Source of the DNA: a virus
Taxonomy: Duplodnaviria > Caudoviricetes
Virus record (IMG/VR): IMGVR_UViG_3300046488_000087
Location: 1-31,017 of that record
DNA length: 31,017 nt
Direction: 5' to 3' (one strand)
Below, in pieces: positions 22,493 through 27,711 of this stretch. Position numbers and translations under genes: made by a program. Below the pieces are notes generated by a model. That model had not been told where the DNA came from and ran no database searches. It saw nothing but the letters and a program-made list of their open reading frames with translations. Numbering within the stretch: position 1 is the stretch's first letter; every line of letters starts with the position of its first letter.

Positions 22493-22505
22493 TGTAATTT
22501 ACCCC

Positions 22506-22533
22506 TTGCAGGAATTACGAAACTCCGTATAAT
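22506..22533 (+). promoter_or_regulatory. Sigma70-type promoter
   Basis: TTGCAG, 16-nt spacer, TATAAT; a near-identical copy lies on the minus strand at 27343-27370. Confidence 0.75.
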
Positions 22534-22589
22534 AGTAATATAGGAAATACGGGCAAGTCGCTATCGGCGCACCGTAATAGGAGGTTCAA

Positions 22590-25633: not shown

Positions 25634-25969
25634 TTGGGTATCTATGCCAAAGATATCTTAGATTTCCAGCACCACATGCGGCGACTGGTCAAAGACGAGT
25701 TTCCATCGGCATTTGGCGGCAAAGCCGAGGTTGGGCACCACTTGCTGCGGCGGCTGAACCACCCCAGCCAAGTGAACGATCCCCGCGTCATCGTTCCCGT
25801 CACGGCGAAGCAACACGACCAATTTCATGCCAACCCGCCGACCATTGTGTTTTTAGGGTTTTCCCTAGACAGGAACAACGAGATTGTCGGAGTCCTGTTT
25901 GATTACCACGGCAAGGAGTATGGGTGGTTAAATAGAAAGTGGCTTGAGGCATGGAAGGCGATAGATTAA
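25634..25969 (+). CDS. Small HNH-like protein
   Basis: VGHHLLRR...VNDPRVIVPVTAKQHDQFH resembles an HNH motif; AAGGAGG RBS before a TTG start. Confidence 0.55.
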   Translation: MGIYAKDILDFQHHMRRLVKDEFPSAFGGKAEVGHHLLRRLNHPSQVNDPRVIVPVTAKQHDQFHANPPTIVFLGFSLDRNNEIVGVLFDYHGKEYGWLNRKWLEAWKAID

Positions 25970-25974
25970 ACACT

Positions 25975-25996
25975 AAGGCCCCGCAAGGGGCCTTTT
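25975..25996 (+). terminator. Intrinsic terminator ending plus-strand transcription
   Basis: AAGGCCCC-GCAA-GGGGCCTT-TT. Confidence 0.8.
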
Positions 25997-25999
25997 CCA

Positions 26000-26880
26000 T
26001 TTCTACTGTGACAACTTTTGGCGGGTTACTGTGACATCCAACTCAGAAAGTTAACAGAAACCGCAACAATTTGACATGGAGGTATCCGGCCTTTCCCGAG
26101 GTGTCCAGAAACCATTTATATATAGAAATGGGGAACGGAATGACCCGCTCACACTTTAACGGTGCATAATCTGACCCCGACCTACACTTTCACGGTGCTA
26201 ACGTTTTGCTGGGGTCAGCAAGGCGTGACGAGTTGTCATAACCCTTAAGATTTTCTGAAGTATTCGGTATTTCCTAAGAGATCGAACCGGCTACAATCCG
26301 TAGCCATTTTGCCGACGTGGACAAAATGGTGGACACCGCCCTGCAACTTGTAAGGATTACTTGTGAGTTCAAACCAAATGACACTATGATGTGCTGGTTT
26401 GATTGCCGAGGACGCACATCATAGTGTCATTTGGAGTGCAAGAAAGTCAGCAACTCACTTGCTAAAAAGTTGCGAGAACGTAGGGATTGTGTACATAAGC
26501 GAGGAAAAGTTGCCAGTATGTGCATTATTTGCACATCTGATCTGCATACGGTTGAGCGTATCTAATGCAAATCATAATAAGAATTCCACTATTATCGGAA
26601 AGTGGCAATTTGCAATAATAAGGACACGCACCCTTAACTCAATTCACGTTTGGTGTAACACGGTTCGTGTTATTCCGATAGAATAATTCCAAATGGATAA
26701 TTCCGCACTATGCCAAATGATTGTGCCAAACCCTTAAATAGGAAAACCGCATCATTGTTAACGATGCAGCAATATTTGCTTCAGTTTTAGGCAAGAACTT
26801 TAATAAAGATGGATTAAATCTCACTCCACCTGAGAGCCAACTGGAGTAGTATTGATGCAGCAGCTTGATACTCATGTTTG
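26000..26880. repeat. Non-coding array of many distinct palindromes (putative protein-binding-site array)
   Basis: About 15 different dyad-symmetric elements, e.g. 26112-26131, 26289-26305, 26304-26329, 26374-26434, 26518-26536, 26656-26672; no credible ORF. Confidence 0.75.
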
Positions 26881-26941
26881 GTGCTGGTATAAAATATCCG
26901 CTCTGCCTACGCTTTCGTCAACTAGCCGCCAAGGGGGATAT

Positions 26942-26975
26942 GAAAAGACCCCCAGTCACGGAACGGGCTGGGGGT
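26942..26975 (-). terminator. Intrinsic terminator ending minus-strand transcription
   Basis: Minus strand ACCCCCAG-cccgttccgtga-CTGGGGGT-CTTTTC. Confidence 0.7.
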
Positions 26976-27336
26976 ACGAGAGGCTACCGTATTCTAGCCT
27001 TATGGTCCTGGCTCCTTAGCCTGCCCCCGTAGAACTAATCTTGCGGGGTACGATTGTGCGGAACGGCCCTATTGAAAGCCGCTAAAGCCCCGAGACTGAC
27101 ATCTCGGTGTTGCCTCTCTGGGCAACGTGGTCACCGTGTTCTGACCCTATGGACCACACGTACGGAACTGGCTGGATTTGCCCCCCATTCTAACCCTCGG
27201 TAGGGAATACGGGTGCCAGGGTACTATTAGTGCTGGCTCGCTGGCCTGCCCCCGTAGGTCGAACCTTGCGGGGTACACATTTCAGAACCTGGCGCGTGCC
27301 CTTTGGCACGGCTTTAATCGCGAAGGCTAACCCTTC
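26942..27336 (-). ncRNA. Putative ~395 nt structured non-coding RNA of unknown class
   Basis: Bounded by a promoter (27343-27370) and a terminator; no ORF with an RBS; many hairpins; duplicated 44-nt domain with a compensatory base pair. Confidence 0.65.
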
Positions 27337-27342
27337 TATACT

Positions 27343-27370
27343 ATTATACGGGTTTTAGTGTTTCCTGCAA
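27343..27370 (-). promoter_or_regulatory. Sigma70-type promoter for the putative ncRNA
   Basis: Minus strand ACCCCTTGCAGGAA...CCGTATAATAGTA, matching 22501-22537. Confidence 0.75.
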
Positions 27371-27711
27371 GGGGTACACTGGCCCTTTTTCTTCTTTTTC
27401 TTCCGCTCCACCAATGCTTTGACCATTTGCTTGGATACCTGATAGTTGTTGTCCTCATCAAGCCCGCATCCCGTCAAGTATTGGAGACAGTGGAATAATT
27501 CATGGGCTATCGCCAGGCGAGTTCGGTACTGTGACATTTTCTCCATGATAAGAACCTCAACCGTTTGATAGCCCTTTGTTCCAGGGGGAACGTTGGTCAC
27601 TCCCTCTGGTGCTTTCCCGTCTGGTTCCTCCCCGACAGAACGGGGAACGTCCTTGTAAGCCTCTAAAAGCTTTGCGGGTACTTTCTCAACGGTTATCACC
27701 GTGTATTTCAT
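27355..27711 (-). CDS. Small HExxH zincin-like metallopeptidase domain protein
   Basis: RLAIAHELFHCLQ...DE motif (ImmA/IrrE-like pattern); poly-Lys tail; ATGA overlap with the upstream gene. Confidence 0.6.
   Translation of the reverse strand: MKYTVITVEKVPAKLLEAYKDVPRSVGEEPDGKAPEGVTNVPPGTKGYQTVEVLIMEKMSQYRTRLAIAHELFHCLQYLTGCGLDEDNNYQVSKQMVKALVERKKKKKKGQCTPCRKH

Follow-up and report, generated by a model that had tools for sequence, protein, structure and literature searches.

The 44-nt repeat studied here is best explained as a pair of paralogous, portable hairpin modules within an accessory cassette of putative RNAs that is probably a tRNA-less remnant of the tRNA island of its phage family, with the leading hairpin, B1, likely serving as a protein-binding handle or decoy and with the interior of the cassette lost in natural variants. 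This explanation as a whole is held with moderate confidence; its structural and genomic part is regarded as very probable, and the role of B1 as a handle or decoy is put forward tentatively.

The window, that is, the whole stretch of 31,017 nt that was analysed, is part of a tailed phage genome, in which genes for terminase, portal, major head protein, primase, DnaB helicase, exonuclease and two NUMOD3 homing endonucleases were recognised. The repeat sits in a non-coding gap, where the minus-strand late genes end at 27355 and the plus-strand early genes end at 25969, and searches of the window with ARAGORN and Rfam gave no tRNA, tmRNA or Rfam match. The last late gene (27355..27711, minus strand) encodes a 118-aa HEXXH protein whose homologue marks the locus family-wide; a homologue also adjoins the cassette in L012/L071 and in L017, loci that were found by DNA motif, and the 105-aa gene of L017 is a distant homologue of the gene in the window. 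All of the 20 listed sequencing runs in which the region is present, wholly or partly, derive from peat metagenomes, with no RNA run among them. Scans of GTDB genomes pointed to no host, with no match to the B1 pattern and no relative of the 118-aa protein among 49 candidates; the 15 capsid homologues were unnamed or hypothetical, and GenBank phages gave no match. An AT-rich non-coding stretch of ~900 nt (26000-26930) adjoins the cassette and is possibly an origin or regulatory region; it contains an inverted repeat of 21 bp without mismatch (26374-26434), and some short blocks of it are conserved in L012, L103 and L258.

Hairpins of the repeat and layout of the cassette

The two copies that had been predicted on the minus strand, at 27233-27276 (copy 1) and 27008-27051 (copy 2), were confirmed in both coordinates and strand. 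Their identity at 37 of 44 positions also held, against a best 44-mer of 30 (mean 25.3) in 200 dinucleotide shuffles of 26000-27400. The copies lie 225 nt apart and differ at repeat positions 13, 16, 18, 19, 34, 36 and 37. Each is composed of two hairpins, B1 and B2, three bases apart: in the predicted B1, a CA/A internal loop separates a 5-bp stem from a 3-bp stem that is capped by five loop bases, and in the predicted B2, six loop bases are closed by a 3-bp stem. In copy 1, B1 (27250-27273) has a G-C closing pair and a UUCGA loop, and B2 (27235-27246) has a CAGCGA loop, with pair probabilities of 0.87-0.96 in the full-length fold; in copy 2, B1 (27025-27048) has an A-U closing pair and a UUAGU loop, and B2 occupies 27010-27021. 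The reported switch of the closing pair from G-C to A-U was thus found as described, at repeat positions 13 and 19. None of the 11 predicted pairs in the repeat is broken and one is changed on both sides, an outcome reached in 1.0% of trials with seven randomly placed substitutions, which is an optimistic figure in that the structure was derived from the same sequences. Position 34 can be read in the fold model as breaking a pair, as it forms a fourth U-A pair in B2 of copy 2 (probability 0.85) that is impossible in copy 1 (0.0). The plus strand folds 44-61 nt of the repeat slightly better than the minus strand, and neither hairpin is followed by a U-tract on either strand or appears in the terminator prediction list, which does not fit intrinsic terminators.

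The repeat proved to be longer than originally described, as a third homologous hairpin, H3, lies behind each copy. H3 of copy 1 (27129..27152, minus strand) has a 5-bp stem and a conserved 8-nt loop, GAAYACGG, and is also present in L012, L103 and L258; H3 of copy 2 (26982..27005, minus strand) has two stem pairs changed on both sides relative to copy 1. The hairpin stands directly behind copy 2, and an insert of ~80 nt intervenes behind copy 1. The two H3 copies are identical at 18 of 24 positions with two compensatory pairs, and over the 68 nt that include H3 there are 13 differences and 16 pairs, of which three are compensatory and none broken (P about 1.4e-4, again optimistic, with the structure taken from the same sequences). 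All six helices reach a pair probability of at least 0.87 in the full-length fold. The middle pair of H3 on the minus strand is U-A, C-G or U-G, and these variants favour the minus strand, since U-G would be a C-A mismatch on the other strand. A scan for H3 returned seven loci, five of them already known and two not related by eye, and of the 81 loci from a further scan only L103 was new. A kissing interaction between the H3 loop and the terminal hairpin D (see below) was considered and dropped, given that the two do not co-occur (L258 and L103 are without D, and L268 is without H3).

A promoter-like site on the minus strand (27343..27370; TTGCAG, 16 nt, TATAAT), with a predicted start near 27336, precedes the cassette. 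It is kept in L258, L268 and L272, matches the −35 element at 3 of 6 positions and is absent from the promoter prediction list. The promoter-like 38-mer at 27339-27376 recurs at 22500-22537 on the opposite strand, and it was also seen with different flanks in other contigs of runs X12, X15, X17 and X19. Module A follows as a degenerate copy (27289..27335, minus strand) predicted to form a three-way junction with a GAUUAAA linker. The minus-strand insert at 27168..27219, closed by a 5-bp stem like the outer stem of module A, occupies the site of the full module A of L268, which faintly suggests homology between the two. Three further hairpins are predicted on the minus strand within 27063..27125 (27110-27125, 27090-27107 and 27063-27082); the stem of the one at 27110-27125 is changed in L012, L103 and L258, and its loop resembles that of B2. 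Hairpin D (26943..26977, minus strand), followed by four U and absent from the terminator prediction list, probably forms the 3' boundary of the cassette, but in L268 a D-like hairpin comes first. The minus-strand cassette of ~390 nt folds better than shuffles (z −2.81), and folding energy does not choose between the strands (z −2.58 for the minus strand and −2.19 for the plus strand). No gene lies downstream of the cassette on its strand for >900 nt in the window.

Relatives of the modules in other phages

An exact B1 scan of viral contigs, using a pattern that fixed the stem letters, yielded 41 loci. Two of them (L008 and L025) are near-identical to the window with both copies, L022 has a single hybrid copy, and L012 and L017 are diverged members of the family; the remaining 36 of the 41 were rejected as unrelated hairpins, with no convincing blastn match (≤23.8 bits) and no tRNA in the eight that were checked. 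L267 was added by a protein-based metagenome scan rather than by the B1 motif. Its stem and internal-loop letters are identical to those of B1 in the window, and B1 of copy 2 is identical over 30 nt to L267:722-751, in a phage with a different gene order. Run X15 contains a further phage contig with 40 nt of copy 1, at one difference and with other flanks, and the same flank occurs in X17.

B1 is closed by G-C in copy 1 as in L012, by A-U in copy 2 as in L267, and by C-G in L017, and this closing pair is never broken in the five aligned B1 sequences. The loop is UUCGA in copy 1 and L017, and UUAGU in copy 2, L012 and L267. With a more permissive pattern, the bases at the closing position formed a pair in 7 of 7 matches from the family, as against 3 of 18 matches that were unrelated. 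Selection on RNA structure, which the original prediction had drawn from the two copies, is supported by these three unbroken types of closing pair and by the three compensatory changes, with 0 of 16 pairs broken, when H3 is included. Stem-breaking changes were less common than loop changes in the four distinct B1 sequences, two of which (L012 and L017) were picked by the stem-fixing pattern, so that stem invariance is built in there; the shuffle controls of the covariation tool on these few sequences were not significant (43/500 and 99/500). Across distant phages, the stem and internal-loop letters of B1 are kept, and only the closing pair and two loop bases vary. Such a pattern would be expected of a surface that a protein or a partner RNA domain recognises.

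In L267, B1 lies between tRNA-Arg and tRNA-Asn, on the tRNA strand, in an array of 16 tRNAs (ARAGORN). In L017, it lies 198 nt before tRNA-Asn, among six tRNAs, and again on the tRNA strand. The minus strand of the window is therefore the likely RNA strand, and it is better fixed by this siting than by folding energy. The gap between tRNA-Arg and tRNA-Asn in L267 is filled by a non-tRNA element of 148 nt (L267:711-858) that starts with B1. The element holds words that resemble conserved regions of RNase P, and RNase P RNA was rejected as its identity after no Rfam match was obtained at E up to 5. Taken as a whole, neither this element nor that of L017 is more stable than its shuffles (z −0.06 and −0.28). 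More gene-poor sequence, without an Rfam match, precedes the module A-B1 unit of L017 (L017:1180-1430). A conserved hairpin leader that ends in a ribosome-binding site was seen before free-standing HNH or endonuclease VII-like genes in four relatives (L272:4630-4685, L273:5205-5258, L267:2140-2187 and L017:1799-1850).

The modules do not keep company with each other throughout the family. B1 occurs without B2 in L012, L017 and L267, B2 of copy 1 occurs without B1 behind a D-like hairpin in L268, and H3 occurs without B1 in L103 and L258; B1 is absent from both complete diverged relatives, G001 (terminase 91% identical) and G010. tRNA-less relatives carry other module combinations at the same place, where modules have been swapped, gained and lost. 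The idea of a 44-nt domain duplicated within one RNA accordingly stands in part: the two copies are real, but B1 and B2 travel separately (L012, L017, L267 and L268). The copies look like old paralogues or subtypes that were brought together, as B1 of copy 2 equals that of L267 over 30 nt, and the loop of copy 1 is found again in L017 and that of copy 2 in L012 and L267.

Module A was found in 10 instances at 8 family loci and at 5 apparently unrelated phage loci, among the matches listed, with its outer stem being part of the search pattern. Its linker precedes B1 by 44-46 nt in three lineages, those of the window, L012 and L017. A loose scan for module A gave mostly chance matches, with both inner stems present in 12 of 123 among the matches listed. 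The family loci, besides 27289-27335 of the window, are L012, L126, L258, L268, L272, L273, L274 and L277, and the apparently unrelated phages are those of L154, L160, L163, L176 and L189. In both sets the GAUUAAA linker is conserved, the arms vary and there is no Rfam match; in L154, module A lies near a tRNA and before terminase genes. A cloverleaf-like module of ~140 nt, absent from the window, was observed in six relatives (L258:719-852, L103:2541-2682, L012:1283-1419, L268, L272 and L273), across which 24 of 36 pairs are changed on both sides, with a T-arm-like hairpin in some.

Natural loss of the segment between the copies

The 225-nt segment at 27019..27243 is deleted in natural variants, with the junction inside a 14-nt block common to both copies. 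Over the compared stretch, the variant L022/L124 matches the window at 99.9% identity but has lost exactly 225 nt, and it keeps a hybrid in which B1 of copy 1 is joined to B2 of copy 2, which shortens the cassette from ~390 to 171 nt. The deletion joint was present in three of the eight runs examined (of the 20 listed), namely X17, X15 and X19, with 14 letters that fit both sides; the depth of the joint contig was 2807, 891 and 2.6, respectively, and X17 had no cover over 27041-27102. Both copies were found in one contig in X5, which may be the source of the window, and in X12, and runs X13, X14 and X16 cover part of the interior. A slip of the assembly at the 14-nt block appears unlikely because the shorter side of the joint is spanned by 75-139 letters. 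The middle segment is thus removed as DNA, and recombination in the shared block would be the simplest route. The phage persists without the 225-nt segment.

Because the modules are swapped among relatives, some relatives are without B1 and the 225-nt unit can be deleted, the locus is probably better described as an accessory cassette with two paralogous heads than as one RNA that needs two domains.

Possible roles and comparison with known RNAs

In the proposed mechanism, the promoter-like site (27343-27370) would drive a late minus-strand transcript of ~390 nt, which host nucleases would trim into stable pieces. Through its invariant stem, its CAA/UA internal loop and its UUnGn loop, B1 would then bind a host RNA-binding or tRNA-targeting protein. 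The module would be useful on some hosts only, and such a host-dependent benefit would explain a copy number of 0, 1 or 2. The two equivalent binding modules suggested originally are possible, and two copies are not needed. A broader proposal, which we consider rather unlikely, is that interchangeable RNA modules are swapped like genes and tuned in number by recombination, acting as decoys against tRNA-targeting or RNA-sensing defence, so that the locus would be an RNA-only counter-defence hotspot that has outlived its tRNAs; its toolkit would include the three-way junction (also found in unrelated phages), B1, B2, H3 and the cloverleaf-like module.

Among the competing explanations, it is unlikely that the copies are processing signals at which a nuclease, or a self-cleaving RNA that they help to form, cuts the transcript into units and frees the 181-nt middle piece or the neighbouring tRNA. 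In L267, B1 does begin ~15 nt past the CCA of a tRNA, the far end of the element coincides exactly with the 5' end of tRNA-Asn, and the 9-mer of the H3 loop runs into the first two bases of that tRNA. This 9-mer also follows B1 by 29-107 nt in five of six instances versus 2 of 746 in the background, for a motif chosen post hoc and with three of the six instances from one phage. However, L017 is without the 9-mer, L103 and L258 have H3 without B1, most of the L267 tRNAs have no such element alongside, and no ribozyme match was found in Rfam. A single large RNA with a fold of the GOLLD/ROOL type, in which the copies would be equivalent domains or an oligomer interface, is quite unlikely, too. 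A single promoter-like site and a single hairpin-plus-U end bracketing ~390 nt, the better folding of the whole cassette than of shuffles, and the fixed spacing of 44-46 nt between module A and B1 in three lineages, which suggests a joint domain, would all suit such an RNA; the variation of module order, number and partners among relatives and the loss of 225 of ~390 nt do not. There is likewise no GOLLD or ROOL match, and the examples of those RNAs given in one account are longer, at 659 and >800 nt (PMC12286853).

That the hairpins act in DNA or in the plus strand, as recombination- or origin-associated sites or as stops for early-gene transcription, is improbable. The better folding of the repeat on the plus strand, the occurrence of recombination between the copies, the adjoining 900-nt AT-rich stretch with its perfect 21-bp inverted repeat and two weak plus-strand promoter matches pointing towards the cassette are in its favour, but such promoters are near chance (6 found, 2.6 expected), B1 has no U-tract behind it on either strand, and a two-way terminator at 25975-25994 meets early transcription first. 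Instead, the place of B1 within the tRNA arrays of L267 and L017 argues for an RNA read from the minus strand, as do G-U pairs, which occur both in H3 and in neighbouring modules. Antiterminators of the HK022 put type consist of two adjacent hairpins, and B1-B2 could be imagined as a nascent-RNA element of this kind that helps polymerase through tRNA arrays, given the 3-nt spacing of its two hairpins, the promoter-like site shortly before them and a position upstream of or inside the arrays in L017 and L267; the absence of B2 from L012, L017 and L267, the lack of any gene after the cassette on that strand for >900 nt in the window and the absence of an Rfam match make this very improbable. Least probable of all is that the copies are decaying leftovers without current function. 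The high depth of the deletion form in X17 and X15, the degenerate module A of the window and the complete relatives without B1 would be compatible with decay, but 0 of 16 pairs are broken across 13 differences, and 30 nt are identical to a phage of different gene order, that of L267.

No Rfam match was found over 26974-27375 even at E up to 10, and Rfam searches of the relatives returned only tRNAs or sub-threshold matches, with no GOLLD, ROOL, ribozyme, RNase P or T-box. Apparent likenesses to words of 5S rRNA, 16S rRNA, RNase P and the C-loop have lengths within chance. No described match was found in the literature, and the viral candidates of PMC10690425 gave no motif or contig-number match in four of its supplement files; a prior listing is possible in its alignment archives, which lay outside the search. 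The modules appear to be uncatalogued, and small RNAs of phage tRNA regions are already known as a kind.

The closest of these are RNAC and RNAD of phage T4, small non-coding RNAs of the phage tRNA region that are described in the cited accounts as expressed, with a role not known (PMC3014915, PMC9697503). The modules resemble them as small predicted non-coding RNAs of a phage, and late expression would fit the site behind the late genes. Siting in a tRNA region applies to L267 and L017 but not to the window or to L012 and its near-identical relatives. Unlike the T4 RNAs as they are described there, the modules are predicted from DNA, reassort among relatives and persist in tRNA-less genomes. 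GOLLD and ROOL are, according to the same source as above, phage RNAs often found near tRNA islands (PMC12286853); the cassette is also phage-encoded, with B1 in the tRNA arrays of L267 and L017, though the window is without tRNAs. It differs from the examples given there in length (~390 nt versus about 600-800 or more), in being a mosaic of small modules in variable order and in that over half of it can be deleted. The tRNA-rich region of phage T5, as presented in PMC11555353, can be deleted and matters against particular defences, with a true tRNA and a protein as the named active parts. The cassette is a deletable RNA island of similar kind, but it is without tRNA, and its anti-defence effect is only proposed.

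An apical T-loop has U and A at loop positions 1 and 5 around a UNR turn. The UUCGA loop of copy 1 and L017 has the letters of the T-loop pentamer in the Rfam tRNA consensus, and copy 2, L012 and L267 have U for the final A. Interdigitated T-loops that bind tRNA have been described (PMC4919913), and in the account consulted the closing pair of apical T-loops is typically preceded by one to three bulged bases (PMC2615604). In B1, unlike in such apical T-loops, the covarying pair closes the five bases directly with no bulged bases, which weakens the case for mimicry of the tRNA elbow.

Near-isogenic forms with either both copies or a single hybrid occur in nature, alongside relatives that have none, and they make the question of function open to experiment. 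Modules that work as decoys would extend phage counter-defence by a layer made of RNA only, and modules that are no more than structural parts of dispensable RNAs would be a modest addition to the catalogue.

The 118-aa HEXXH protein encoded beside the cassette was considered as an RNA partner and set aside, as it has no solved relative (best E 0.064) and its structural model is of low confidence (pLDDT 50). Similarity to IrrE/Peptidase_M78 is a lead only (28% of one cluster). The protein has a lysine-rich tail, and its gene stays beside an RNA or tRNA island throughout the family.
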